Below, in pieces: positions 3,435-41,983 of a stretch of DNA of 64,000 bases. Numbering within the stretch: the stretch's first letter is position 1; each line of letters starts with the position of its first letter. Source of the DNA: Desulfuromonadales bacterium. Lineage in GTDB: Bacteria > Desulfobacterota > Desulfuromonadia > Desulfuromonadales > UBA2197. Location: positions 17,711 through 81,710 of the forward strand of contig JACUTW010000002.1 of assembly GCA_014859605.1 (NCBI GenBank), written 5' to 3'. The notes under the pieces were generated by a model. That model was not told the DNA's origin. It made no database searches and saw only the letters and a list, made by a program, of their open reading frames with translations. Made by a program: the position numbers and the translations under genes.

Positions 3435-3573
3435 CCGTTGGCGGGAGGTCGTGTTGAGGAACGAAACGCGACAGTTCTCCCCGCGCCAAGGTCGCTTATG
3501 TTGCGTTTCGCGATAAGGCAGCTCAACAGCAACCTACAAATTTATAATTCCCGCTCCGGCAGATCTGTACCCC

Positions 3574-9162: not shown

Positions 9163-10281
9163 ATGTCCTTCCCGATATTAACCAGCAGCGCCGAGATCGC
9201 CGCCTTTGCTGCCGACTTACAACGCGAACCGGTCATTGCCGTCGATCTCGAAGCCGATTCGATGCACTCTTACCAGGAGAAGGTCTGTCTCCTGCAATTT
9301 ACGACGCCGCACACAACCCTCCTCATCGACCCCCTGGCCGGCGGTAATCTGTCCCCCTTGGGGCCGGTCCTTGCCAACCCGGCGATCCGCAAGATCTTTC
9401 ATGCCGCTGACTACGATACCCGCTGCCTGCACCGCGATTACGGCTTTACCATCCGTGGCCTCTTCGACACCATGGTCTCCTGCCAGTTCCTCGGCGAAGA
9501 GAAGTTCGGGCTCGCTGATGTTCTCGGCAAATATTACGGTGTCACCCTCGACAAACAGTATCAGCGTGCCGACTGGTCGCAGCGTCCCTTGTCGCCGGAG
9601 ATGATCGCCTATGCTGCCGCCGATACCACCCATCTCCTTCCCCTTGCTGTCCAACTTGAAGAGCGCTTGCGCGAACTCGGCCGTCTCGATTGGGTAACGG
9701 AGGAGTTTGAACTCCTCGAACAGGGACAGTTTACCCAGCATGTCGGCCCCCTCTTCCTCCGCTTCAAAGGGGCGGCGGCCCTCGATCGCCGTCAGTTGGC
9801 GATTCTCGAAGCCTTGCTGCATTGGCGTAATCGCGAAGCAGAGCGCCGTGACAAACCCCCCTTTAAAGTTCTTGGCAATGACTTCCTTCTCCTCCTGGTG
9901 CGGAACGCCCCCATCGATCTTGCCGCGGTCAGTGCCATTGTCGGCCTGCCGGGTTGGGTGGCCGAACGTTTCGGCAAGAGCGTATTGCCGGTGATTGCCA
10001 CCGCTTTGGCGCTCCCCGAAGCCGAGTTGCCGCGCTTCCCCCGCACTGAGCGGCGCGAGCGCGATCCTGCGGTCGATCAACGCCTTGCTGTTCTCAAACT
10101 CTGGCGCACCACTATCGCCAAAGAACTGGCGCTGGAGCCGGGGATTCTGATCAATAACGGTCTCCTCGAAGAGATCGCCCGCAAGCCGCCGCGCAACCTC
10201 GCCGAACTGGAGCAGATCAACATGAAGCGCTGGCAGCGGCGTGTTCTTGGTGCCGGTATCGTCGCAGCCCTGAAGAGTTGA
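9163..10281 (+). CDS. rnd: ribonuclease D (DEDD 3'-5' exonuclease + HRDC)
   Basis: VIAVDLEADSMHSY and KIFHAADYD exonuclease motifs. HRDC-like LAILEALLHWRNREAERRDKPPFKVL. 372 aa. Confidence 0.85.
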   Translation: MSFPILTSSAEIAAFAADLQREPVIAVDLEADSMHSYQEKVCLLQFTTPHTTLLIDPLAGGNLSPLGPVLANPAIRKIFHAADYDTRCLHRDYGFTIRGLFDTMVSCQFLGEEKFGLADVLGKYYGVTLDKQYQRADWSQRPLSPEMIAYAAADTTHLLPLAVQLEERLRELGRLDWVTEEFELLEQGQFTQHVGPLFLRFKGAAALDRRQLAILEALLHWRNREAERRDKPPFKVLGNDFLLLLVRNAPIDLAAVSAIVGLPGWVAERFGKSVLPVIATALALPEAELPRFPRTERRERDPAVDQRLAVLKLWRTTIAKELALEPGILINNGLLEEIARKPPRNLAELEQINMKRWQRRVLGAGIVAALKS

Positions 10282-12435: not shown

Positions 12436-13830
12436 ATGACGACACGCGCGATCGGCATCGATTTCGACGGCACTACCTTGCGGGCGGTCGTCCTGCAACT
12501 GGAGAAAGGGAACGAGCGGGTTCTGCAAACCGTCCGCATCCCCTGGGACGGGAGTGCGCCGCTGACGCCCCTTTTGGCGGGAGCGGGGGTGATTCCGGCT
12601 GTCGGTGATCGGGTGACCACAGCGCTGCCGCCGGCCATCGGCTTGACCCGCACTCTGACCTTCCCCTTCAGCGACCGTCGCAAAGTCGCCATTGCTCTCC
12701 CCCTCGAACTCGCCGCTCTTTTGCCGATCCCCCTTGATGATTGTGTGATCGCCCAACAGGAAACGATTGCTCTGGACAATGGCATCAGCGTCGTTGCCGC
12801 CGCAGTGCCGGCGACCGCGGTGGCGCAGCTGGTCGGCCCCTATGATGCCGCCGGCATCCCCCTGCAAACCGTCGATCTCCTCCCCTTTGCCCTGGCTGCC
12901 GGCCTGGCGGCGGAGCTCGGGGACGGGATCGCCCTCTGTCTCAGCCACGGCTGGGGGACGATCCTCCATCTTGTTGCCGGCCGCTTGCACGATTATCGCG
13001 TTATCCCTTTGCCCGCGGATCGCCCCCCGGAAGAACGCGCTGCCGGGTTGCAGCGGGAATTGACGCCGCTGTTGCACGCCAGTCGCAGCACCACCCTGCG
13101 CCTCTTTGGTGCCGAGGTCGATGCTGCCCTCCTTCTCGCCCTGCAGAGTGCTTATCCGCAATTGGCGGTCACAGAGTTGCTGGCAGGGCGGGGGGGCGGA
13201 ACTCTTGCCGGAGAATTCCTGCCGGCCCTGGCTCTCGCCCGCCGCGGGGCACGGAGTCCGGATAATGGCTTCAACTTCCGGCGTGGCGCCTTTTCCCGGC
13301 ATGGGGAGAGCGCGGCGCTGCGATCCCGTCTGCTCCTTCTCGGCGGGATTGTGGCCGCTGCGGTTCTGATCCTTTCGGCTTCGGCGGGAGTCCGCTGGTG
13401 GAGCAAGGCGCAAGGGGCGGAGGCGCTCAAGCAGGAGTTGGCCACTCTCTATCGCCAGGCGATTCCCGGCTCGGGGGCGATTGTCGATGTCACCCTGCAA
13501 CTCAAGGCCCACCTCAACGAACTGACGCGCAGCAGCCGTCCGGGCGGGCAACATCCCTTGCTGCGTCCGGCCGGGATCATGCGCGAAGTTGCCAATCTAT
13601 TGCCGCGGGAGATTCCGGTGACGCTGCGCGACTGGAATATCAGCGCGGAAGAGATCCGGATCGAAGCCCATGCCCCGTCCTTTGAAGCTGCTGACAAGAT
13701 TGCCGCCGCTCTGAGCGCATCCCCCCTCTTCAAGGCGGTGCAGGTGACAGATGCCAAGAGCAGCGCCGATAACAGTCGGGTCGACTTTCGTTTAACCCTG
13801 ACCAGCAAAGCGGCGGAGGAGTTGCCATGA
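12436..13830 (+). CDS. GspL-like type II secretion/type IV pilus platform protein (PilM-like actin-fold N-domain + TM + PilN-like C-domain)
   Basis: N-terminal AIGIDFDGTTLRAVVL (actin-like ATPase fold start). One TM (LLLLGGIVAAAVLILSA). C-terminal PilN/GspL periplasmic-type region. Followed by GspM/N-like genes with 4-nt overlaps. Confidence 0.55.
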   Translation: MTTRAIGIDFDGTTLRAVVLQLEKGNERVLQTVRIPWDGSAPLTPLLAGAGVIPAVGDRVTTALPPAIGLTRTLTFPFSDRRKVAIALPLELAALLPIPLDDCVIAQQETIALDNGISVVAAAVPATAVAQLVGPYDAAGIPLQTVDLLPFALAAGLAAELGDGIALCLSHGWGTILHLVAGRLHDYRVIPLPADRPPEERAAGLQRELTPLLHASRSTTLRLFGAEVDAALLLALQSAYPQLAVTELLAGRGGGTLAGEFLPALALARRGARSPDNGFNFRRGAFSRHGESAALRSRLLLLGGIVAAAVLILSASAGVRWWSKAQGAEALKQELATLYRQAIPGSGAIVDVTLQLKAHLNELTRSSRPGGQHPLLRPAGIMREVANLLPREIPVTLRDWNISAEEIRIEAHAPSFEAADKIAAALSASPLFKAVQVTDAKSSADNSRVDFRLTLTSKAAEELP

Positions 13831-21051: not shown

Positions 21052-22743
21052 ATGGCAGCAGGGAACGAAAGTGTTTCGTCCTTTTCACGACGACTGTTAA
21101 TCTTCACGACCATTGTCGGGTTTATCGCCGGCGTCGCCTTCCCCCCGATCGCCGCCTACATGGTCGGCCCCGACGCTTATAACTGGCCCTTTGTGGTGAC
21201 TTGTCTGGTGGCCGGGCAGACCTTCGGCGCCATTCTCTTTTTAACCATCCGCTCTTCCCTGACCCGCCAGCTCTGTCAATACCTCCATCTTTTACAATTA
21301 ATCTCTGAAGAGACGATCGTTGCCGACGGCAGTGTCGAAGCGCTTGAAACCTCACTGCAGAAAAGTGTCGACCATATCCGCCAGAACCTTGGCAACCTTT
21401 TGACCTGTATCGATACCTTCCTCCCGCATTATCAGGAACTAGCCCAGGCCAGCGGCTTCCTTTCCAACCGCACTGACCAGGGGCTCAGCGCTGCCCAGGC
21501 GGCCCGCGGCAACATTGAAACCCTCGCCGAAAAACAACGCCAGATTGCCGCCGAGATGGAGCTGCTGCTGCGCCGCAGCCGCGGTGAGACGGTGATCTCG
21601 CAACAACTCTCCAACGCCCTGCAAGAGATGGCGCAAGCGATGGAGCGTTCCAACGATCGTTTTCTCGAAACGACGGCAACGGTTGACGAAATGGCCGGGA
21701 GTGTGCGGCAGGTCGCCAGTGAATCCGAGCAGATTGCCCGGGCTGTCGAAGTGAGTGCGCATGATCTTGGCGGCATCGACGAATCGATGGCGCGGATTCG
21801 TGCCGAGGCGCAAAAAGGGGCCAATGCTGCCGAGTCACTGCGGGGTGATGCCGAAGAGGGGCTGGTTGTTGTCGATGCCGCCATCAGTGAAATGGAGCGG
21901 ATCGATCACGAAGGGGAGAAGACGCGCCTCGCCATGCAGCGTCTGGCGGTGCAGGCGGCGGCGGTGAACAAGATTATCAAGGTGATGAAAGAATTGGTCT
22001 CGGATACCGAGCTGTTAGCCTTTAATGCTGCAATCATTGCCGCCCAGGCCGGTGAAGAGGGGAAAGGGTTTGCCGTTGTCGCCGAAGAGATCGGCGATCT
22101 TGCCGGCCGTACTCGCGAAAACGCCCAGGAGATCGCCGGAATCGTCCAGGCGATTGCCACGGAGAGTGCCGACGTGACTGCCGCGGTCGCTGCCACCGGC
22201 GAGCGAATCGGCGCCGGCAAGGCGCAGTCCCGCAGCGCCGGCAATGCCCTGCGCAAGATTGTTGCCAGTTCCGCTGAAGCGGCGGCAACGACCGCCGCGA
22301 TTGTTGAAGTCACGGAAGAGCAGCAGGAACGCACCCGCACCCTCATTGCCGGGATGGCGCAAGGGACGAGTTCGGTGCGGGCGATTGCCCGGGCGATTCA
22401 TGAACAGCAGATTGCTATCGAGCGGATTCAGCACGGGGTGATCGACATGAAGGGAGCGTCCGACCGGATGGCGGAGGGGATGGAAGAGCAAATCTCGGCG
22501 AAACAGGCTTTTGACGCCGGCCTCTCTGAACGCGGCGAGCAGTTTAAGGCGATCAATGACGCCGTGCGCATGCAGCTGGCGATCAGTGAAAAGGTTCTGG
22601 AACATTTTTCCACCTCCGAGGAGCGCCTCAAGGGGAATGCCGCCCGTACCGCCACCATCGATCGCGAGATCCTGGCTCTCGAAGAGATCGGCAAGTCGCT
22701 GCAACAGGTGGCCGACCGTTACGGGGCGATGCAACGGCGGTAA
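21052..22743 (+). CDS. methyl-accepting chemotaxis protein
   Basis: Two N-terminal TM segments. C-terminal MCP signalling hairpin TELLAFNAAIIAAQAGEEGKGFAVVAEEIGDLAGRT. Confidence 0.85.
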   Translation: MAAGNESVSSFSRRLLIFTTIVGFIAGVAFPPIAAYMVGPDAYNWPFVVTCLVAGQTFGAILFLTIRSSLTRQLCQYLHLLQLISEETIVADGSVEALETSLQKSVDHIRQNLGNLLTCIDTFLPHYQELAQASGFLSNRTDQGLSAAQAARGNIETLAEKQRQIAAEMELLLRRSRGETVISQQLSNALQEMAQAMERSNDRFLETTATVDEMAGSVRQVASESEQIARAVEVSAHDLGGIDESMARIRAEAQKGANAAESLRGDAEEGLVVVDAAISEMERIDHEGEKTRLAMQRLAVQAAAVNKIIKVMKELVSDTELLAFNAAIIAAQAGEEGKGFAVVAEEIGDLAGRTRENAQEIAGIVQAIATESADVTAAVAATGERIGAGKAQSRSAGNALRKIVASSAEAAATTAAIVEVTEEQQERTRTLIAGMAQGTSSVRAIARAIHEQQIAIERIQHGVIDMKGASDRMAEGMEEQISAKQAFDAGLSERGEQFKAINDAVRMQLAISEKVLEHFSTSEERLKGNAARTATIDREILALEEIGKSLQQVADRYGAMQRR

Positions 22744-22748
22744 AATCT

Positions 22749-22836
22749 ACCACCCCTAGCCCCTCCTTGACTAAGGAGGGGAACTGTACGCTTTAACCTC
22801 CCCTCCTTTTTTAAGGAGGGGTCGGGGGTGGTCGCC
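22749..22836. repeat. two inverted copies of a REP-like hairpin element (CCCCTCCTT-loop-AAGGAGGGG plus GGGGGTGGT tail)
   Basis: Copy A stem is 22760-22768/22773-22781 with the tail complement ACCACCCC at its left. Copy B stem is 22800-22808/22813-22821 with tail TCGGGGGTGGTC. A third copy lies at 26986-27025. Confidence 0.75.
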
Positions 22837-24239
22837 TTAATGCGCTTCCCGCTACTTCTTTCCTTGCCGGGGCGAAAATTTTTTTGGCCCTATCGACACC
22901 GTCCTCCCCAAAACGTTTCTCCCGATGCCATATAAAGTCAAGGCTAGCCGTTAATATTTCCTTCAGTATTTACGGTTATGAATTTATGTGTTAATAAGAT
23001 TGAAATACTATTAACGGATAATGCCGATGAGAAGACAAGACCTCAGCCCGGAACGGCAGCAATTACTCGTTCCCCTCACTTCGCATCCAGGGGCGTATGG
23101 TTTGGTTCCACCGCCAACCCCTCTTCATCTCAGTCTGTCGGGCTTGAGAGGTGAGATAACCAGAGCGCATGAGGCCCTGGGGCGACTCCAAGCGGCCACG
23201 GCCTCTCTGCCGAACCGCAATCTTGTGACACGAACCTTCGATCGGCGGGAAGCCGTCCGAAGCAGCCAGATCGAAGGGACCGGATCGGACGTCAACGACC
23301 TCTACACCTACGAAGCCACCGGCAGCGATGCCGGACTGTCGCAGGACGTCGTGGTGACATTGAACTATGTCAAGACCCTTGATTTCGGACTGCAGGAGGT
23401 TACACGGCAAGGTGCCGCTGTGTTGACCACCTCCTTTATTCAGGAGCTGCATGTGCGCCTTATGGATGACGTGCAGGGATACACCGATGTCCCAGGCAGG
23501 CTCAGAAACAGGCAGAACTGGATAGCAGGTCTCAGGATCTACGATGCCAAGTTCGTTCCGCCGCCACCGGATCGCGTGCCGGGATGCCTGGAGGATCTGG
23601 TCTATGCACTCCAGAACCCCACTCAAGAGGAATCGTTTTTCGAGACCCCGCTGGTGATGAGGATGGCGATCGCACACGCGCAGTTTGAAACCATCCACCC
23701 CTTCATGGACGGCAACGGCCGCGTCGGCAGGATACTCCTCACCCTGATGCTTGCCGCAGAAGGGTACCCGCCGGTCTATCTTGCCGGATTCCTGAAGGCA
23801 AACCAGGAGGACTACTACGAGACCCTCGGTCAGGTGCAATTACGGGGAGAATGGACCGAATGGGTGAGATTCCTCGCCACTGGCGTTGAGGTGGCGTGTC
23901 GCGAATCGATAGAAACCGCGACTGAGCTCACCGCGATTTTGGAGAAGTGGAAGACAGCGGTCACTGGCTTGAACCTGCGCGCGGATGCGGCGGCCTATCG
24001 GCTGCCTGAGCTCCTCATTGGAACCCCGGTGGTGACAGTGAACCAGGTAGCAAAGGGGCTGGGGGTGGCATTCCCGGCAGCGAACCGCGCGTTGATCCAA
24101 CTGCAGGATCTCGGTATCCTCGATTCAGTGAAAGAGCAAAAGCGAAATCGGCTCTTTGTTGCCCGCAAGGTGATAGATGTGTTGGATCGTCCGACTATTC
24201 CGGAGATGTTTTGACGAGGTATTCTCCATTTTTTTGAAG
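22837..24239. mobile_element. putative integrated islet (Fic cassette) bounded by a duplicated polA 3' terminus; no integrase present
   Basis: TTAATGCGCTTCCCGC at 22837-22852 is identical to the real polA stop region at 24240-24255 (24/27 identity over 27 nt). The islet carries only the Fic gene and an AT-rich promoter region. Confidence 0.4.
23021..24214 (+). CDS. Fic family protein (AMPylase-type, with N-terminal inhibitory motif and C-terminal wHTH-like region)
   Basis: Fic active-site motif HPFMDGNGRVGR. SSQIEG matches the [ST]xxxE[GN] auto-inhibition motif. 397 aa. Confidence 0.9.
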   Translation: MPMRRQDLSPERQQLLVPLTSHPGAYGLVPPPTPLHLSLSGLRGEITRAHEALGRLQAATASLPNRNLVTRTFDRREAVRSSQIEGTGSDVNDLYTYEATGSDAGLSQDVVVTLNYVKTLDFGLQEVTRQGAAVLTTSFIQELHVRLMDDVQGYTDVPGRLRNRQNWIAGLRIYDAKFVPPPPDRVPGCLEDLVYALQNPTQEESFFETPLVMRMAIAHAQFETIHPFMDGNGRVGRILLTLMLAAEGYPPVYLAGFLKANQEDYYETLGQVQLRGEWTEWVRFLATGVEVACRESIETATELTAILEKWKTAVTGLNLRADAAAYRLPELLIGTPVVTVNQVAKGLGVAFPAANRALIQLQDLGILDSVKEQKRNRLFVARKVIDVLDRPTIPEMF

Positions 24240-26912
24240 TTAATGCGCTTCCCGCCAGTTCTTCCCGACTCCGACCGCGACCGTCAGCGGCACTGAAAGC
24301 GCCATTGCCCCTTCCATCTCCTCCTTGACCAATTTCTGTATAATCTCTACCTCCGCCAGCGGCACATCGAAGACGAGTTCATCGTGTACCTGCAGCAACA
24401 GCTTGCTTCTCAGCCCTTCCTTCTTCATCCGCCCGAAAACATTGAGCATCGCCACCTTGATGATATCCGCCGCTGAGCCTTGCACCGGGTAGTTGACGGC
24501 ATTGCGCTCAGCATAGGCGCGGATGCCGCCGTTGCTGCTGTGGATGTCGGGGACGGCACAGCGCCGACCGAGGATGGTGGTGACATAGAGCAGCTCGCGG
24601 GCCTCGGCCTGTTTGGCGGCGATAAAGTCCTTGACCCGGCTGTAGCGGGCAAAGTAGCTGTCAATGAAGTGCTGCGCGGTTTTGCGATCGACGTTAAGAT
24701 CCTTGGCGAGACTGAAGGCGCCCATGCCGTAAAGGACGGCGAAGTTGATGGTCTTGGCCTGGCGGCGCTGTTCGCTCGTCACCAACTCCGGGAAGATACC
24801 GAAGATCTCGCTGGCGGTGCGGCGGTGGATATCTTCGTCGTGCAGAAAGCTCTCCTTGAGGGCAGGCTCGTCAGCGAGATGGGCGAGGACGCGCAGTTCG
24901 ATCTGCGAATAATCGGCGCAGAGGAGGAGATTCCCTTGCGCCGGGATAAAGGCTTCGCGGATACGTGCCCCTTCTTCGCTGCGGATCGGGATATTCTGCA
25001 GATTCGGATCGCTCGATGACAAGCGGCCGGTGACGGTGATCGCTTGGTTGAAGGAGGTGTGAATCCGCCCGGTCTCGGGATGAATCAGCTTCGGCAGGGC
25101 GTCGGTGTAAGTCCCCTTGAGTTTGGCCAGGGAACGGTAATCGAGGAGGCGGCTGGCGATGATATGCTCGGCGGCAAGATCATTGAGGACATCGACGTCT
25201 GTCGACCAGCCGCTCTTGGTCTTCTTCCCCTTCGGGAGCTGGAGTTTTTCAAAGAGGATCTCGCCAAGCTGCTTCGGTGAAGCAATATTGAAGGGGGTGC
25301 CGGCGAGTTCATGGATTTCCGTTTCGAGGCGGGCGAGTTTGATTTCGATCTCGCGGGAGAGGCCGGCAAGGAGTTCGGCATCGACGCGAATGCCGTTCCA
25401 CTCCATCTCCGCCAGAATCACTGAGAGCGGCATCTCCACCTGATGAAAGAGGTACTCCTGGCCACTCTCCACCAGTAAGGGGGCAAGAAATTCGTAAAGG
25501 CGCCAGGTAACATCGGCATCCTCAGCGGCATAAACGATCGCCTTCTCGATCTCGACTTCGCTGAAGCAGACGCGCTTCTTGCCGGTCCCGGTCATCTCAT
25601 CGTAGGTGATGGTCTTGTAGTCGAGGAGTTCGGCGGCGAGGGCATCCATGCCGTGCGATTTGCTGGTGGGATTGGTCAGGTAGGAAGCGAGCATGGTGTC
25701 GAAATCGAGCCCGGCGACGGTAATCCCGGCGCGGCGGAGAACCAGAGTATCGAACTTGCCATTCTGGGCGACCTTGAGGCGTTGTGGATCGGTCAAGAGC
25801 GGCCGCAAACGTTCCAGAACGACGGCAACATCGAGTTGCACCGGCATACCGAGGTAATGGTGGCGCAGCGGGATGTACCAGCCGCTTTTGGCTTGAGTGG
25901 CAAAGGAGAGACCGACGAGATCGGCACGCAAGGGATCGAGTCCGGTCGTCTCGGTATCGAAGGCAAAGGCCGGGGCGGCGTTCAGCTCTTGCACGAGTTC
26001 GTCCAGATCGGCCAGGGTCAGCACCCCCCGGTAGTTGGAACTGTCGCTCGATTCGGCGCTGGAGAAGGTGTTGAGGAGTTTATGGAACTCCAGCTCTTTG
26101 AAGAGGGCGGTAAGGGCGGGGCGGTTCGGCTCACGCGGCGCCAGGGATTCCAAGTCGTAGGCAATCGGCAGGTCGTCGATGAGGGTAACAAGCTGCCGGC
26201 TGAGGCGCGCCTGCTGCGCAAAGGTTTCGAGATTTTCGCGTTGCTTCCCCTTGAGCTTGTCGGTGTTGGCGAGGAGATTCTCCACCGTCTTGAACTCCTG
26301 AATCAGCTTGACTGCCGTCTTCTCGCCGATGCCGGGGACACCGGGGACATTATCGGAAGAGTCGCCGGCCAGGGCCTGCACCTCAATGACGATCGATGGC
26401 GGCCCGCCGAAGCGCTCGGCGACTTCGGCCATGCCGGTGAACTTCTCCTTCATGGTGTCGAGGAGGCGCACCTGCGGGGTGACGGTCTGCATCAGATCCT
26501 TGTCGCCGGTGACGATCGTCACTTTCAACTCGTCACTGGCAAAGCGTTTCGCTAAAGTGGCAATCAGATCATCGGCTTCAAAACCGGCTTCTTCGAGGAC
26601 CGGCAGGTTGAGGGCGGCGACGACCTCCTTGATCTTGGGGATCTGCGGGATGAGATCGTCCGGCATCGAAATCCGGTTCGCTTTGTAGGCAGGATAAAGC
26701 TCCTTGCGGAAGGTCGGCCCGCGCGGATCGAAGACAACCGCCAGGTAATCGGGCTGCTCGTCGCGGACGATCTTGAGGAGCATAGTGGTAAAGCCGTAGA
26801 TGGCGTTGGTCGGAAAGCCCTTGCCGTTGGAGAGGTGGCGGATGGCGTAATAAGCGCGATAGATGTAGCTGGAGCCGTCGATGAGATACAGCCGTTTGCA
26901 TTGGTCAGACAT
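24240..26912 (-). CDS. polA: DNA polymerase I
   Basis: 5'-nuclease (LYLIDGSSYIYRAYYA), 3'-5' exo, and pol domain motifs (DYSQIELRVLAH, RRQAKTINFAVLYG, LQVHDELVF). Start preferred at ATG 26912 (MSDQCKRLY); the table start is 26951. Confidence 0.95.
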   Translation of the reverse strand: MSDQCKRLYLIDGSSYIYRAYYAIRHLSNGKGFPTNAIYGFTTMLLKIVRDEQPDYLAVVFDPRGPTFRKELYPAYKANRISMPDDLIPQIPKIKEVVAALNLPVLEEAGFEADDLIATLAKRFASDELKVTIVTGDKDLMQTVTPQVRLLDTMKEKFTGMAEVAERFGGPPSIVIEVQALAGDSSDNVPGVPGIGEKTAVKLIQEFKTVENLLANTDKLKGKQRENLETFAQQARLSRQLVTLIDDLPIAYDLESLAPREPNRPALTALFKELEFHKLLNTFSSAESSDSSNYRGVLTLADLDELVQELNAAPAFAFDTETTGLDPLRADLVGLSFATQAKSGWYIPLRHHYLGMPVQLDVAVVLERLRPLLTDPQRLKVAQNGKFDTLVLRRAGITVAGLDFDTMLASYLTNPTSKSHGMDALAAELLDYKTITYDEMTGTGKKRVCFSEVEIEKAIVYAAEDADVTWRLYEFLAPLLVESGQEYLFHQVEMPLSVILAEMEWNGIRVDAELLAGLSREIEIKLARLETEIHELAGTPFNIASPKQLGEILFEKLQLPKGKKTKSGWSTDVDVLNDLAAEHIIASRLLDYRSLAKLKGTYTDALPKLIHPETGRIHTSFNQAITVTGRLSSSDPNLQNIPIRSEEGARIREAFIPAQGNLLLCADYSQIELRVLAHLADEPALKESFLHDEDIHRRTASEIFGIFPELVTSEQRRQAKTINFAVLYGMGAFSLAKDLNVDRKTAQHFIDSYFARYSRVKDFIAAKQAEARELLYVTTILGRRCAVPDIHSSNGGIRAYAERNAVNYPVQGSAADIIKVAMLNVFGRMKKEGLRSKLLLQVHDELVFDVPLAEVEIIQKLVKEEMEGAMALSVPLTVAVGVGKNWREAH

Positions 26913-26985
26913 GGGGAGCCTCGCGGGAATAGAATGGCCGGAGTATTTCACAGGCGGGGGAAAAGGTAAAAAGGTTTTGTCAGGT

Positions 26986-27025
26986 TAACTCCCCTCCTGC
27001 CTGAGGAGGGGCTGGGGGTGGTCAG
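26986..27025. repeat. third copy of the REP-like hairpin element
   Basis: ACTCCCCTCCT-gcctg-AGGAGGGGCTGGGGGTGGTCAG, same orientation as copy B at 22796-22836. Lies 74 nt upstream of the polA start. Confidence 0.75.
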
Positions 27026-27162: not shown

Positions 27163-27408
27163 ATGGTCAGAACTCAAATCCAATTACCAGAAGAACAGGT
27201 CTCGACCCTTAAAAATCTTGCCACGCAGCAACATACTTCGATGGCAGAACTGATCCGCAGGGCGATCGATATGTTTACCGCGTCAACGGATACGGTGAGC
27301 CTGCAAGATCATCGCCAACGGGCATTGGCGGCAGCTGGGAAGTTCCGTTCCGGGCATGGCGACCTCTCTGCCAAGCATGACCACTATCTCGCCGAGGTTT
27401 ACAAATGA
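27163..27408 (+). CDS. vapB: ribbon-helix-helix (CopG-like) antitoxin
   Basis: 81 aa. MVRTQIQLPEEQVSTLKNLA...MAELIRRAID RHH pattern. 4-nt overlap with the downstream PIN gene. Confidence 0.75.
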   Translation: MVRTQIQLPEEQVSTLKNLATQQHTSMAELIRRAIDMFTASTDTVSLQDHRQRALAAAGKFRSGHGDLSAKHDHYLAEVYK

Positions 27409-27809
27409 AGAGGATCTTCATCGATACCTCTGCCTTTCTCGCCGTCCTTGACGCCGACGATGACTATCACTCCTCGGCAAAGAGCGCATGGGGTGAGATA
27501 CTGACATCCGGATCTCTGTTGGTGGCCAGTAATTACATTCTGATTGAAACCTTTGCTCTGGTACAGAATCGGCTGGGACTTCAGGCGATCAGAGCCTTTC
27601 AGGAAGACATCGTCCCGCTCCTCTCGATCCGGTGGGTCGATGCATCCATTCATGCCGCTGCGACTAGTGCCTTGCTGGCGGCCAACAGAAAGAAGCTCAG
27701 TTTGGTCGATTGTGTTTCGTTCGAAGTCATGCGCCATGCGGCCATCAAGTCGGTCTTTACCTTTGACCGCCATTTTCAGGAGCAGGGTTTTGTCTGTGTG
27801 CCGAAATAA
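27405..27809 (+). CDS. vapC: PIN-domain ribonuclease toxin
   Basis: 134 aa. MKRIFIDTSAFLAVLDADD (first acidic PIN residue), later D/E positions (LVDCVSFEVM, FTFDRHF). Confidence 0.85.
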   Translation: MKRIFIDTSAFLAVLDADDDYHSSAKSAWGEILTSGSLLVASNYILIETFALVQNRLGLQAIRAFQEDIVPLLSIRWVDASIHAAATSALLAANRKKLSLVDCVSFEVMRHAAIKSVFTFDRHFQEQGFVCVPK

Positions 27810-27890
27810 TCACCGAAACACCGATGATTTACTCTCCACAGAGGAAAAGCACTTATCGCTAGGTCGCATTCTCAGGAGAACAGAGAAAAC

Positions 27891-28916
27891 ATGACGAAAC
27901 CTCAAAAACTCCAGATCCGAAACAGCACGGCGGAATTTCTGATTTTTTCCCGACAAGCTGGTGAAAATACCATCGAAGTGCGCGTTGAAGATGAGACCGT
28001 CTGGCTGACGCAAAAGCTGATGGCAGTGCTGTTTGAAGTCGATGTGCGGACGGTCAATGAGCATTTGAGCAATATCTATCAATCGGGTGAAGTGCTTCGG
28101 GATGCAACTATCCGGAAATTCCGGATAGTTCAAAAAGAAGGAGAGCGGGAGGTGTCGCGAACTGTCGATTTTTACAGCCTCGACGCCATTATCTCCGTCG
28201 GCTTTCGCGTCAACTCGGCGCGAGCCACCCAGTTTCGCCAGTGGGCCACCGGTATTTTGCGCGATTTCGCCATCCGGGGTTATGTCCTGGACAAGGAGCG
28301 CCTCAAGAACGGGCAGTTCTTCAGCCAGGAGTATTTTGATGCCCTGATCGCTGAAATTCGCGAGATTCGCGCCAGCGAGCGAAAGTTCTACCAAAAGATC
28401 ACAGACATTTATGCCACGGCCATGGATTACCGCGCCGATAGCGAAACGACCCGTACCTTTTTTGCCACGGTTCAGAACAAGCTTCATTTTGCCATACACG
28501 GACAGACGGCTGCCGAGCTGATCGTCAAACGTGCCGACCACAAGAAAGAACGGATGGGGCTGACTTCCTGGAAGAACGCTCCGGACGGCAAGATTATCAA
28601 AACCGATGTGGTCGTTGCCAAGAACTATCTGAACGAAAAAGAGCTGAAATCTCTCGATCGTTTTGTCACCATGTATCTCGACTACGCCGAAGATCAGGCC
28701 GAGCGCAACATCCCCATGACCATGGCGGATTGGGCGAGCAAGCTAAATGCCTTTCTCCAGTTCAATGAACGGGAGATCCTCGACAATCCTGGAAAAGTCA
28801 CCCAGGAAATTGCTAAAGCCTTTGCTGAAAGTGAATTTGAAAAGTTTCGGGTCGTTCAGGATCGGCTTTTTGAGTCAGATTTTGACAAACAAATCAGGCT
28901 GTTGCTGAAAAAATAA
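27891..28916 (+). CDS. rhuM: RhuM-family (virulence/Fic-DOC-associated) protein
   Basis: 341 aa. N-terminal IEVRVEDETVWLTQKLMAVLFEVDVRTVNEHLSNIY and FRQWAT..LRDFAIRGYVLD blocks are characteristic of the RhuM family. Confidence 0.8.
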   Translation: MTKPQKLQIRNSTAEFLIFSRQAGENTIEVRVEDETVWLTQKLMAVLFEVDVRTVNEHLSNIYQSGEVLRDATIRKFRIVQKEGEREVSRTVDFYSLDAIISVGFRVNSARATQFRQWATGILRDFAIRGYVLDKERLKNGQFFSQEYFDALIAEIREIRASERKFYQKITDIYATAMDYRADSETTRTFFATVQNKLHFAIHGQTAAELIVKRADHKKERMGLTSWKNAPDGKIIKTDVVVAKNYLNEKELKSLDRFVTMYLDYAEDQAERNIPMTMADWASKLNAFLQFNEREILDNPGKVTQEIAKAFAESEFEKFRVVQDRLFESDFDKQIRLLLKK

Positions 28917-28977
28917 TTTTGAATGAAATTCATTCTTTCCATCGTCGCCCTGCTGCTTACAGTCGGGCGATCTGTCT

Positions 28978-30246
28978 TTACTGTTCCCGCAACACCGTCC
29001 TATTCGGCCAGGCGAGGAGCGCGATGCCGAGCAAGCGCCCGCAGACCAGCGCCAAGGCGGCATCGACGGCGCCGGAGTAGGGGGAATAGCGGACCAGGAG
29101 AAAGAGAAGGATAAAGATCGCGGCGGTTTCGAGGAGCGTTGCCAGCGAGATCGGTGTGGTCGTCCGGGCATGGAGGAGGACGCCGCGCTGCAGTGACTGG
29201 GTGAGGGTCAGGGCAGGGAGGATTGCCTGGATGCACAAGGGGGCGAGGGCAAAGGCGGCGAGTTCAGGGGGGAGTCCGGAAAAATCCTCCAGCCAAAGGG
29301 TGGAGAGGGGGGTGAAGGCGATGATGATTAAAGGGAGGGTGGCGCCGATCGCCAGATAAAAGCCGAAGTTGCGGATGCGGCGATAGTTGACGAACTTCAC
29401 CCCCATCAGGGCAATGGCAACTTCCTGATAGGACAGGCCGATGGCGCGGAAAAGGAAGGTCAGGCCGTTGACGACCGGAACGACCGCCAGCGACTGGACC
29501 GGAAAGAGGGCGCGGCCGAGGAAGAAGGTGATCATCGGCTGGACGCTGAGGGCGACGACCGGGGTTAGGGCGAGGGGGAAGTAGAAGGCGCAGAGGTGGC
29601 GCAAAGAGAGTTCGCCGTCGGGATGCGGGGTGGTGCAGGCCTTGATCTTGCGGATAATCCCGGCCGACAGGAAGCGAATGGTCAACACCTCGGCGACCAC
29701 GCCGCAACTGAGGGCGGCACCGCCGATGCGGGTGCCGTCGAGAGATGAGTAAGCGGCGAGGAGGAGGGCGCAACTGCTCATGCCGAGCAGTCGCACCGCG
29801 GTGCCGACAGTGATCCGCTGCGTCTGGCCATGGCGGATCAGCAATCCCTGATAGAAGCGGCGCATGCCGATCGCCGCCGGCCAGGGGAGGAGCAGGAGGA
29901 GGGCGCCGTGCGCATGTTCAGCGACGAGCGGCTGGAGTCCGACAAGATCGATGGCGATGCGGCTGAAGAGCGCCGGGATGCAGAGGATGGCGAGGCAGGC
30001 GGTGACGCCCAGGCAGAGGGACAGAGAAAAATATTTGAGCTGCCGGTAACTGCGCTCTTCCTGCACCAGAGCCGTGGAGGCGCTCATCAACATGATGATC
30101 GGCGCTTCACTGACCAAAGCAAAGGCGTAGGCGACTCCGTAAGCAGCGAGATTGATGGCGGGATCGCCGAGACGGGCGATAATCGCCGCGATCAACGGCC
30201 CCTCCGCCGCCATCATCAGCCACGCCCCCGCCAAGGGGTACCACAT
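28978..30246 (-). CDS. MATE/MOP-superfamily-like polytopic membrane protein
   Basis: 422 aa, about 12 TM. N-terminal PLAGAWLMMAAEGPLIAAIIARLGDPAINLAAYGVA resembles MATE-like exporters. Family assignment is tentative. Confidence 0.5.
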   Translation of the reverse strand: MWYPLAGAWLMMAAEGPLIAAIIARLGDPAINLAAYGVAYAFALVSEAPIIMLMSASTALVQEERSYRQLKYFSLSLCLGVTACLAILCIPALFSRIAIDLVGLQPLVAEHAHGALLLLLPWPAAIGMRRFYQGLLIRHGQTQRITVGTAVRLLGMSSCALLLAAYSSLDGTRIGGAALSCGVVAEVLTIRFLSAGIIRKIKACTTPHPDGELSLRHLCAFYFPLALTPVVALSVQPMITFFLGRALFPVQSLAVVPVVNGLTFLFRAIGLSYQEVAIALMGVKFVNYRRIRNFGFYLAIGATLPLIIIAFTPLSTLWLEDFSGLPPELAAFALAPLCIQAILPALTLTQSLQRGVLLHARTTTPISLATLLETAAIFILLFLLVRYSPYSGAVDAALALVCGRLLGIALLAWPNRTVLREQ

Positions 30247-39773: not shown

Positions 39774-40556
39774 TCAGGGTTTTTCTCCGATTTCGACCAG
39801 GGCGTAAGCGGAATGGTTGTGGATCGACTCAAAATTTTCACACTCGACCTGAAACCAGAAGATCTCCTTCACCGTCGCCAGCTTCTCGGTCAACGCCCGG
39901 ACAATATCCTCGACGAACATCGGATGATCATAAGCCTGCTCGGTCACGGCCTTTTCGTCTTCGCGTTTGAGAACCGAATAGACCGGCGAGCTGGCGCACT
40001 CTTCCAGCCAGGTGACGAGATCTTCGATCCAGACGTGGCCGTGATAGCGGATATTGACGGTAAGGAGGCTACGCTGGTTGTGGGCGCCGCGGGCGCTGAT
40101 CTCTTTCGAGCAGGGACAGAGGGAGGTCACCGGCACGCTGACGCCGAGGACGAAATCTTGCGTCTCGCCGAGGGTGCCGACCATCCGGCACTGGTACTCC
40201 ATGAGGCCGCGGGCCCCGGAGACCGGCGCCGCCTTTTCGATGAAATAGGGAAATTCGAGTTCGAGATGGGCGCGGCTCGCTTCGAGGCGATCCTTCATCT
40301 CCTGGAGGATGGCGTCGATGCGGTCGACGCTGATCTCACCGTGATAAAGGTTGAGAATCTCGACAAAGCGGCTCATGTGCGTCCCCTTGAAGTGGTGGGG
40401 GAGATCGACGTACATGTTGACGCGGGCCACGGTATGTTGATAGCTGCTGTTCCGTTCGAGAACGACGATCGGGTAGCGGATATCCTTGACCCCGACCTTG
40501 TCGATGGGGATGTTGCGCGGGTCGAAACTCTTCTGCAGATCGGGCATATTCGTCAT
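39774..40556 (-). CDS. folE2: GTP cyclohydrolase I type 2 (FolE2/MptA)
   Basis: 260 aa. KVGVKDIRYPIVV, HMSRF and CPCSKEIS motifs are typical of FolE2. Confidence 0.9.
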   Translation of the reverse strand: MTNMPDLQKSFDPRNIPIDKVGVKDIRYPIVVLERNSSYQHTVARVNMYVDLPHHFKGTHMSRFVEILNLYHGEISVDRIDAILQEMKDRLEASRAHLELEFPYFIEKAAPVSGARGLMEYQCRMVGTLGETQDFVLGVSVPVTSLCPCSKEISARGAHNQRSLLTVNIRYHGHVWIEDLVTWLEECASSPVYSVLKREDEKAVTEQAYDHPMFVEDIVRALTEKLATVKEIFWFQVECENFESIHNHSAYALVEIGEKP

Positions 40557-41983
40557 GAGTTAGCCTTTGTCATGTATCGCTGTTTGGAGCTATTAGGTTT
40601 GTCCGGGATCGTCATGATTAGCAGGCTTTTTTCAAGGAGGGGTTGAAGCACTTCGGATCGGAAATGTTCCCGATGTTTCATTCCTAAAAAAAGCTGAATT
40701 TCGCTTCGACTTCTCGCAATGCGGCAAAACTCAAGAACCAGTTCTTCTCGTTTGACTTGCTCGGTGACTTGCTCGGTGACTTGCTCGGTGACTTGCGGGG
40801 TAGCCACAAAGCTGGGAATAAAAACTGACACTCGGAATATCTGTTCTTCTTGCAGTAATGGGTCGTGACCGGCAAAGGCCTTGGCATACCGGAAAAGATT
40901 TCGCACCCCGGAGCCAAGCTCCTCGGCACGCTCCATCTCCTTGAACATTCGGGCAATGACCGGATTTTTTGGCGAGGGCGAAAAGTTCAGCGGATCGATC
41001 AATCCGCTGCCGTGAGGGTTGTTACTGTTTTCTGTGCTCACCCGGTCATGGTAAATGATCAATTTAGCCGGAAAGGGATTGAGATATTCACGGTGAATCA
41101 GCATGTTAGCAACAACTTCACGAAAAATACGGTCCCGCAGGCTGATGCGCAAATCGCCCTCCAGGTAGAAGGGATCGGCGACGTGCTTGGCCACAAACGC
41201 CATCAGGCGATCATAACTTTCGATCAAATTGGTGCGAATATCGTCGCGGTCATCGTAGCGATCGAGGTTATGTACACGCAAAATAGCATCGGTGCGGTGG
41301 TGGGGGACAACACTGAGAATCACCTCGTCCTGCCCGAAGAGCAGCACCGCTGCCATAGAGAAACCTTCCTGGCCGGTGAGGTAATCCTTCTGAAATAAAC
41401 GGGCGCTCTTGAGTAGGGACATATCATCAAGCTGCCCCCAGGGATGGTCAAAGCGTTGCAGGCGCACCAGCTTACGGACCCGTTCAATCAGGTCAGCGCG
41501 CAGATCGCCAAGTGTGACGAAAGGATAAATGCGGTTTTCGCTATAGGTGGTCTGTTTGCGCAAAAAGAGTTCTGAAACCTGTTGTGAATGGCTGGTGATA
41601 TCGAAATCACCCTCTTCGTTGCGGTCAAAGATGCGATTGTTGCAGGTGTGAACTTGAGAGCTTTCCGGCACGGAGAGGACCAGGACGATCCGCCCATCCA
41701 ACTCCACTTCTTCCGGAGCCAGATACATGGGGGGATTAATCTTTTGGCTATTATGAAGCGCCGTTACCAGGTCCGCCTTGATTCGCGCCACGGCATTCGG
41801 TTCGACACCGCAGACTGTGCCGTCATCGGCAACTCCCAGCAGTAACACTCCCCCTTGTCGGTTTAAAAAGGCGCAGATGGTTTCATAGACGTCCCGGTTC
41901 AGCTTCTCGTGGGACTGCTTGAATTCAAGCGTCAGTCCTTCTCCCTGACGAAGCAACTGTTCGAGGTGCAGGGGTGTCATCAA
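40553..41983 (-). CDS. AlbA_2 (Schlafen-like) DNA-binding domain + HATPase_c_4 ATP-binding protein with C-terminal wHTH
   Basis: [10 protein letters not shown]...[20 protein letters not shown] (AlbA_2). ANMLIHREY...[14 protein letters not shown] (HATPase_c_4-like). 4-nt overlaps with both queC and folE2. Visibly lower GC. Confidence 0.7.
40754..40796. repeat. 12-nt tandem repeat x3.6 (GACTTGCTCGGT) inside the AlbA_2 gene, encoding (QVTE)n
   Basis: Direct reading of 40754-40796. The protein shows [15 protein letters not shown]. Confidence 0.9.

Follow-up and report, generated by a model that had tools for sequence, protein, structure and literature searches.

How does a gene come to lie between two copies of the 3′ end of an essential gene when it brings no recombinase of its own? 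The question is raised by the polA locus of a Desulfuromonadales bacterium represented by a metagenome-assembled genome, of which we analysed a stretch of 64,000 nucleotides (the window; GenBank assembly GCA_014859605.1, contig JACUTW010000002.1, positions 17,711 to 81,710 of the forward strand). Here a gene for a Fic-domain protein stands next to the stop codon of polA, the gene for DNA polymerase I, and the last 27 nt of polA recur on the far side of the Fic gene. The 1,403 bp at 22864–24266, which comprise the Fic cassette and one copy of the 27-mer, were inserted at the last 27 nt of polA. In the ancestral arrangement polA directly abutted a hairpin of repetitive extragenic palindromic (REP)-like units behind the gene for a methyl-accepting chemotaxis protein (MCP), and in the orphan 27-mer we see the old polA terminus, displaced and decaying, still joined to its ancestral REP–GCC flank. 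The features of the locus are as follows (window coordinates; L numbers are our labels for comparison contigs).

21052–22743, plus strand: MCP gene (Pfam MCPsignal, E 7.6e-28), the core neighbour of polA at empty sites
22749–22832, no strand: inverted REP-like pair (units 22749–22782 and 22799–22832), the hairpin that ancestrally separated the convergent MCP and polA genes
22837–22863, minus strand: orphan polA terminus, a 24/27 match; the functional polA end holds the same position in L084
22864–22940, plus strand: left segment of the cassette, 77 nt, non-coding; common to L081, L087 and L088, not L085
22941–23026, plus strand: AT-rich region upstream of Fic, with an inverted repeat; conserved in L082 and L083
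23027–24214, plus strand: Fic gene, 395 aa (Pfam Fic_N and Fic; PADLOC SoFic)
24215–24239, no strand: Fic–polA spacer, 25 nt, the right end of the cassette; conserved in L081, L085, L087 and L088
24240–24266, minus strand: functional polA terminus (G K N W R E A H stop); with the orphan it makes up the 27-nt repeat pair
24240–26912, minus strand: polA, DNA polymerase I, 890 aa (Pfam 5_3_exonuc_N, 5_3_exonuc, DNA_pol_A_exo1 and DNA_pol_A)
26989–27022, no strand: third REP-like unit, just upstream of the polA start

The duplicated terminus and the insert

Viewed on the plus strand, the last eight codons and TAA stop of polA form the 27-mer TTAATGCGCTTCCCGCCAGTTCTTCCC. Allowing up to three mismatches, this 27-mer has a single second match in the window, the orphan TTAATGCGCTTCCCGCTACTTCTTTCC, which is identical at 24 of 27 positions and perfect over the leading 16 nt, as a preliminary description of the locus had reported; none of 100 dinucleotide-preserving shuffles gave a 27-mer match. 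The similarity ends exactly at the 27-mer edges on both sides, in ungapped and gapped local alignment alike, and inspection reveals no obvious dyad symmetry within the 27-mer. Translated on the polA strand, the orphan gives G K K stop R E A H stop, against G K N W R E A H stop in polA, and its internal stop codon identifies it as a dead copy. The polA open reading frame (ORF) is intact despite the flanking duplication; it opens at 26951, with the likely true start at Met-14 (26912). The protein is listed as 100% identical to MBE0502605.1 (890 aa), and the window Fic protein is MBE0502604.1.

The repeats enclose 1,376 nt. Their content is as the preliminary description had it, an AT-rich non-coding stretch (39% GC at 22864–23020, against a window mean of 58%) and a single gene, Fic, which is convergent with polA and separated from it by 25 nt between the two stops. 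Direct repeats of the 3′ end of the target gene thus flank the insert and the target is intact, as in an integrative element; scans of the polA–Fic region for tRNA, tmRNA and Rfam families gave no match.

On its outer side, the orphan is separated from the REP pair by the 4 nt CGCC. The preliminary description had the orphan directly abutting a REP or terminator hairpin; the hairpin is there, 4 nt away, but it is larger than described and consists of two inverted REP units that fold as one long hairpin (−63 kcal/mol, z = −7.65). Each REP-like unit is composed of CCCCTCCT, a loop of 5–6 nt, AGGAGGGG and then a GGGGGTGGT tail. There are three such units in the 64 kb, and all of them bracket the polA–Fic block. 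The REP pair is nearly identical in an empty (L084) and an occupied (L087) site. It is also near-invariant across lineages whose adjoining MCP 3′ ends share just 71–73% identity, and is missing in L119.

Empty and occupied sites in relatives

Among reference genomes the best polA is about 68% identical over its full length (74% at most with a C-terminal query) and shows no synteny, but metagenome assemblies contain a clade whose polA is 89–94% identical to that of the window at the amino acid level. All relatives considered here are metagenome contigs, and the source genome is represented by the 64 kb of the window.

The preliminary description had named empty sites in relatives as the check on its view that the Fic segment was inserted at the 3′ end of polA. 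Such sites exist and support that view: 11 contigs (L084, L089–L095 and L119–L121) have a single polA terminus and no Fic gene (polA 90–93% identical at the amino acid level, measured for L084, L089 and L119). Eight of them (L084 and L089–L095) have the order MCP, REP pair, GGTCGCC-TTAAAGTT, single 27-mer, polA; in the other three (L119–L121), which lack both REP units and an insert, a 20-nt spacer separates MCP from polA.

In the occupied sites L087 and L088 the GCC-TTAAAGTT flank leads into an orphan 27-mer; after it come the 77-nt segment known from the window, Fic, the 25-nt spacer, likewise shared, and polA. In L081 the flank is of the window type, with GCC joined directly to the repeat, and the Fic cassette lies between two perfect 27-mers. 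The two flank types differ by an 8-nt indel, TTAAAGTT, which is present at 12677–12684 of L084 and 9799–9806 of L087 and missing at 22836/22837 of the window and in L081. The same cassette with the same 27-nt duplication is therefore found on two left-flank alleles, as expected if the cassette entered two alleles of the site. Position 10 of the 27-mer also varies: T occurs only in copies that flank Fic (both copies of the window, L081 and L085), and C occurs in all termini away from Fic, yet also in both copies of L087.

The recurrence of the orphan–Fic–polA layout in three independent assemblies (L081, L087 and L088) argues that it is not an assembly artefact. Together with the shuffle control and the precise correspondence of the empty sites, this leaves a chance match or artefact with a negligible probability, even for a locus that comes from a metagenome-assembled genome.

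L081 is itself informative. This Logan contig of 1,426 bp begins with GCC, the 27-mer and T, and ends with G, the 27-mer and GAC. The Logan assembler uses k = 31, and a 27-nt repeat alone cannot break a de Bruijn graph of that k. The contig ends are the break points expected at k = 31 if an allele GCC–27-mer–GAC co-occurs in the sample, an argument that depends on k. This indicates that the sample is polymorphic at the repeat boundaries and falls short of proving excision. The second allele would have CGCC and the 27-mer in common on the left, and the 27-mer and GACT on the right, and would be either an empty site or other cargo.

Other modules at the polA terminus

The polA end is a recurrent landing site for small toxin–antitoxin (TA), abortive-infection (Abi) and defence modules in uncultivated Desulfuromonadales of one genus-level clade. 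The module types found there number at least five (Fic/SoFic, ParE, AbiE, YefM–YoeB and RelE–HTH), all with cargo of TA or abortive-infection type, and at occupied sites the cargo gene lies 25–40 nt from the polA stop. The preliminary description had offered a decayed island as one explanation for the missing integrase; with so many different small, recombinase-free modules placed so close to the stop, this is unlikely.

L085 holds a tandem array in the order MCP, one REP unit, AbiEii/AbiEi, a 101-nt polA fragment, ParE with a ribbon–helix–helix (RHH) antitoxin, a 109-nt polA fragment, Fic and polA. The duplicated terminus is thus not specific to Fic, as these fragments also separate the AbiE and ParE modules. 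Both L085 orphans are preceded by the same 30–40 nt, ending in GCAAAGCAGCCAGTCCCTGCCAAGCGT, and the Fic gene of L085 has a 109–113-nt orphan and a left segment unrelated to that of the window.

In L117 and L118, whose polA is the nearest to that of the window (93.7% amino acid identity), YefM–YoeB lies beside polA, and the right end of this module is homologous to the GCAAAGCAGCCAGTCCCTGCCAAGCGT motif of L085. To the left of YefM–YoeB is a 52-nt remnant of the 5′ end of Fic, 94% identical to window positions 23010–23061, from which it follows that Fic was once present at this site and was later displaced. A 5′ fragment of a VOC/glyoxalase-like ORF lies directly to the left of the Fic remnant (reverse strand of L117, about 509–616, with the remnant at 616–667), and an 11-mer within it, TTGCCGGGGCG, equals the first bases of the window cassette (22864–22874). 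Compared with shuffled sequences, the 77-nt left segment of the window has a weak similarity to this fragment (p about 0.014), and that of L087 has none that is significant. The similarity, if real, would point to a donor arrangement without an orphan.

Another arrangement is that of L102, where a RelE-family toxin and an HTH/MqsA-like antitoxin form a module whose end lies 27 nt from the polA stop. This contig was found by a scan of metagenome contigs with a wobble-degenerate 27-mer, alongside 21 ordinary polA ends; the same scan with the exact 27-mer gave no match. No orphan terminus was found downstream of polA at about 95 other loci across bacteria, and at ten more distant Desulfuromonadales loci (polA 63–68% identical at the amino acid level) the next ORF downstream of polA was in no case a TA or defence module, five of these ORFs having ordinary Pfam matches (dehydrogenase, MoaA, cytochrome c and others) and five having no match. 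Insertion at the polA end is a clade-specific phenomenon.

The upstream side of polA is variable as well. In the window it carries an RHH–PIN pair (27163–27809), a RhuM-family gene (27891–28916) that matches the PADLOC candidate system PDC-S05, a 422-aa membrane ORF and proC; relatives have AAA_14/DUF4143 with RHH–PIN, RHH–PIN alone, or TusA/SelA/SelB without TA genes (stretches compared: window 27163–30246, L084 6466–9904, L117 86–331 and L119 191–5425). This upstream accessory region gave no direct repeats of 18 nt or longer. The 422-aa ORF (28978–30246), which has no Pfam match, was considered as a recombinase and rejected, being a polytopic membrane protein. Elsewhere in the window, 40553–41983 (minus strand) encodes a 476-aa protein with SLFN_AlbA_2, HATPase_c_4 and Fic-like_C domains, of a kind common in accessory and defence contexts and unrelated to the polA-end cassette.

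Divergence of Fic and its flanking genes

We compared Fic with three flanking genes (polA, MCP and an AEC transporter) by Nei–Gojobori synonymous divergence (dS), with the following results.

Window versus L087: Fic 0.20, polA 0.57, MCP 0.93, AEC transporter 0.61
L087 versus L085: Fic 0.11, polA 0.45, MCP 0.37, AEC transporter 0.88

Fic is 2–4 times less diverged than its flanks at synonymous sites and 2–3 times less at fourfold sites, where the window and L087 differ at 0.155 of positions in Fic (bootstrap 95% confidence interval 0.107–0.204) and at 0.283 in polA (0.240–0.329). Other genome pairs show the same lower divergence of Fic, and the GC content at third codon positions is similar in Fic and not above that of the flanks. 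Sliding identity is 90–98% across Fic and over the first 200 nt of polA declines to 86% and on to 81%; with identity dropping at the boundary, no homologous-recombination tract reaching into polA is seen. From a synonymous divergence of Fic below that of polA, MCP and the transporter we infer that Fic has moved between lineages after their split, apparently landing each time at the polA stop codon. Fic is found in two polA clades with empty-site lineages between them.

One alternative is a single ancient insertion, inherited vertically and later lost precisely between the direct repeats in some lineages, with the cassette immobile today. It would accommodate the identical layout of the Fic–polA junction, with its 25-nt spacer, in all Fic-bearing genomes, the Fic remnant of L117, which places Fic in the sister lineage of the window, a cassette GC content equal to that of the host, and the three substitutions, with a stop codon among their effects, that the window orphan has gained. 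It does not accommodate a Fic gene that is less diverged than all three flanks, with non-overlapping confidence intervals and no stronger codon bias, or the separation of the two Fic-bearing polA clades by empty-site lineages, and the L081 break points indicate alternative alleles within one sample. We consider it improbable.

The flanking genes have their own histories. The MCP tree pairs the window with L084 and L087 with L085, the polA tree pairs the window with L117 and places L087 with L085 and L119, and in the AEC transporter tree L085 is the outlier. The disagreement between these trees marks the polA neighbourhood as a recombination mosaic with frequent homologous exchange.

Mechanism of insertion

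The reading that we favour, tentatively and at a little less than an even chance, is att-type Campbell recombination in which the cassette brings a polA terminus and the recombinase acts in trans, as for cis-mobilizable elements (CIMEs). Each cassette would carry its own copy of the polA terminus (27 nt in the Fic cassette of the window, about 100–113 nt in the other modules), which would recombine with the chromosomal terminus in Campbell fashion (attP × attB), regenerating an intact polA and displacing the old end; repeated events would build tandem arrays like that of L085. Since a recombinase gene is missing from every cassette, the enzyme would come in trans from an element elsewhere in the genome or community, and the cassettes would then behave as CIMEs. 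In favour of this reading, the direct repeats have the stop codon of a conserved gene as their exact starting point, empty sites that match them exist, the same duplication occurs on two flank alleles, low divergence extends no further than about 30 nt from the stop, and there are tandem arrays with repeated termini. It also has precedents in the ssrA islands of Dehalococcoides (PMC3146451) and in CIME accretion (PMC5704250).

Several results weigh against att-type recombination. Repeat length is inconsistent, the same Fic gene having a 27-nt orphan in the window and one of 109–113 nt in L085, where the repeats moreover take in 30–40 nt of non-polA flank. Within each genome both copies agree at position 10, and the L085 copies share lineage-specific variants, an agreement that fits host-sequence duplication or homologous exchange at least as well as attP × attB. 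Integrases, resolvases, transposases and other recombinases are missing both from the tested ORFs of the window (about 45 by Pfam, and most of those lacking Pfam matches by NCBIfam, PADLOC or PHROGs) and from the called genes of L085, L087, L117 and the other occupied contexts (0 of at least five module types). The absence of an integrase stated in the preliminary description is thus borne out in these two gene sets. No attP-bearing donor was found in IMG/VR, INPHARED or PLSDB: IMG/VR gave no exact match to the wobble-degenerate polA-end 27-mer or to the motifs at the cassette ends, and the nearest Fic in it is 30% identical; there was no match among INPHARED phages, and in PLSDB plasmids only about 5–10% of the query was matched, inside the Fic gene. 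Nor was a functional integrative and conjugative element (ICE) or integrative and mobilizable element (IME) of the same att specificity found in the window, about 20 related contigs or these three databases. The preliminary description had recognised the footprint of site-specific integration; the insertion stands, but the footprint fits several mechanisms, no attP donor, excised circle or recombinase having been found.

The main rival is integration addressed by homology without a dedicated recombinase, which we regard as possible but doubtful. In one version, looped-out circles carrying a short polA fragment would integrate by RecA-dependent Campbell recombination. In the other, homology-facilitated illegitimate recombination would anchor a module–polA donor on polA, the far end of the donor joining tens of nucleotides inside the recipient polA, whose own terminus would be left as the orphan. 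Either version would do without the recombinase that is missing from every context, and would suit orphans of varying length (27, 101 and 109 nt), the varying left end of the Fic-bearing DNA, and orphan and functional copies that share host-specific variants and agree at position 10. L117, which lacks an orphan and has YefM–YoeB joined within a truncated Fic, resembles a replacement with deletion; the conflict between the MCP, polA and transporter trees attests to frequent homologous exchange, and the 27-mer and REP pair are the best-conserved patches flanking the cargo. RecA-dependent exchange has a lower limit of about 23–27 bp in Escherichia coli, however, and 27 nt would be marginal for it. 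Recombination anchored on 2.7 kb of polA also sits poorly with orphans of all kinds that end no more than 113 nt from the stop, with a low-divergence tract that ends no more than about 30 nt from the polA stop in every comparison and shows no scattered crossovers, and with the same 27-nt duplication on two left-flank alleles.

The sharing of position-10 alleles and of L085 lineage variants by both copies in a genome would also be expected of a transposition-type insertion with a long target-site duplication, made by some element or enzyme. We judge this very unlikely. The cassette ends have no terminal inverted repeats and there is no transposase, so that the cassette is not of the DDE, insertion sequence (IS) or miniature inverted-repeat transposable element (MITE) kind; duplications of 27 and 101–113 nt exceed known transposase staggers and vary more than they do; and the boundary of the duplication is exactly the polA stop.

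The Fic protein and its probable regulatory region

The Fic protein is counted from the second in-frame ATG of an ORF that opens at 23021, and its homologues are also 395 aa long. It has Fic_N and Fic domains (Pfam E 9.9e-20 and 7.3e-19), and its translation contains the active-site motif HxFx(D/E)GNGRxxR, as HPFMDGNGRVGR. Class II Fic proteins are defined by an N-terminal inhibitory motif, (S/T)xxxE(G/N), which is present as SSQIEG. The PADLOC SoFic model aligns over positions 10–360 of its 361 (E 3.5e-92), and the NCBIfam SoFic equivalog scores 123.8 bits, under its cut-off of 550. A dN/dS of 0.13–0.20 indicates purifying selection.

By its sequence, the protein is probably a SoFic-like AMP-transferase. 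It resembles SoFic and class II Fic proteins in the full-length model match, in the HPFxxGNGRxxR and SxxxEG motifs and in its TA/Abi surroundings, and differs from them in scoring below the NCBIfam cut-off (124 versus 550 bits) and in lacking a small downstream AS1-like antitoxin gene, polA following after 25 nt. SoFic of E. coli is described as a toxic AMP-transferase that gives abortive-infection phage defence (PMC12249575). The window protein would act as a toxin-type anti-phage or addiction module, autoregulated through an inverted repeat upstream of its gene.

That inverted repeat (CCGTTAATA at 22945–22956 and TATTAACGG at 23009–23020) lies within about 85 nt upstream of Fic that are kept in homologues 76–77% identical at the unrelated loci L082 and L083 (about 3440–3520 and 9920–10000, respectively). 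Its retention at unrelated loci without repeats marks Fic and its promoter/operator as a conserved functional unit: the AT-rich region is probably promoter and operator, and the inverted repeat probably serves the Fic C-terminal domain as an autoregulatory operator. A promoter scan of the region gave a single promoter-like match, on the wrong strand and at chance level. The idea that Fic is universally a repeat-flanked cassette was rejected, because the L082 and L083 homologues have no flanking duplication and share no more than the promoter region of about 85 nt; repeats linked to polA are a property of the polA site and not of Fic genes in general. Of these two homologues, one lies in a Thoeris/IS21/reverse-transcriptase island and the other beside PemK. 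L083 also has four tandem 33-nt repeats (9528–9659) within a 139-aa ORF upstream of its Fic homologue.

The 77-nt left segment has no Rfam match and folds no better than shuffled sequence, and the 25-nt spacer contains no terminator-like site and no significant fold. With no predicted terminator between the two genes, polA would now be cut off from its hairpin and transcribed head-on against Fic, so that the local effect would be the loss of its terminator hairpin and exposure to head-on transcription from a toxin gene.

Relation to known systems

The footprint itself is textbook. The preliminary description had thought the 3′ end of an essential gene an unusual attachment site, a view we do not share, since integration at ssrA, the tmRNA gene, and at tRNA genes is a textbook case (PMC3146451, PMC5704250). 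The less usual features are the choice of polA and the fact that a recombinase is consistently missing. Searching the literature for integration into polA yielded nothing relevant, and we know of no report of one.

The locus resembles an att-flanked, recombinase-less island, or CIME, in a tandem array at the 3′ end of an essential gene. CIMEs and accretion arrays at the 3′ ends of target genes are known from the ICE and IME systems of Streptococcus (PMC5704250). Like them, the modules have direct repeats of the target-gene 3′ end, no integration or transfer genes, an intact target and arrays with att copies (L085). CIMEs are, however, recognised by a co-occurring functional ICE or IME of the same att specificity, and none was found here; the modules are also single-function, 0.7–1.7 kb long, and have repeats of 27 versus about 100–113 nt. 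The likeness thus goes halfway: attL/attR-like repeats are kept and integration and transfer genes are absent, and no mobilising element is seen.

The islands at Dehalococcoides ssrA are tandem and delimited by a 20-bp direct repeat of the gene's 3′ end, and 16 of 31 carry a DsiB serine-recombinase module beside attL (PMC3146451). They share with the polA site an essential single-copy target, tandem units bounded by short direct repeats, cargo much younger than the core and, in about half of the islands, the lack of an integration module. At polA, by contrast, no module has a recombinase, the target encodes a protein, the modules measure about 1 kb rather than about 12 kb, and the repeats are unequal.

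In E. coli, the prophage e14 and phage 21 integrate at icd and supply a replacement 3′ end. There, as here, the element-proximal copy completes the gene and the displaced 3′ fragment persists on the far side; those elements differ in encoding an integrase and an excisionase and in spanning tens of kilobases. With Fic as the sole gene between the repeats and no integrase inside, the window insert is not a self-contained integrative element.

Integron arrays, including those without an integrase (CALIN arrays), also consist of small, mostly single-gene cassettes, often TA modules with their own promoters, at repeated sites served by an external enzyme. The repeats here are polA coding fragments, not attC hairpins. 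On inspection the junctions GAAG/TTAATG and CGCC/TTAATG do not fit GTTRRRY, the spacer with the terminus has no significant fold, and no IntI-type integrase or Phage_integrase match was found in the window or the related loci. The polA end could nonetheless be the address of an integrase-free, integron-like cassette system, in which small TA, Abi and SoFic modules, each with its own copy of the conserved terminus, would insert, stack in arrays and swap between lineages by short homology or an unrecognised host enzyme and a gene that cannot be lost would protect them against deletion, an idea that we think unlikely.

Some chromosomal hotspots or defence islets that lack integrases turn over by homologous recombination in flanking core genes. 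The polA site shares with them variable defence and TA genes between core genes, the absence of mobile-element genes and mosaic flanks, whereas duplicated gene-terminus fragments at module boundaries are not expected there.

The clustering of defence and TA genes in hotspots is known, but their arrival at hotspots without mobile-element genes is largely unexplained. At the polA terminus the footprints are unusually legible, with orphan termini at module boundaries, empty sites and cargo younger than its flanks. Because all of these states co-occur in public metagenomes, the mechanism, whether a recombinase in trans or capture by short homology, is directly testable. If no recombinase is involved, the polA site would exemplify a simple and general route by which selfish and defence cassettes may anchor themselves on an essential gene.

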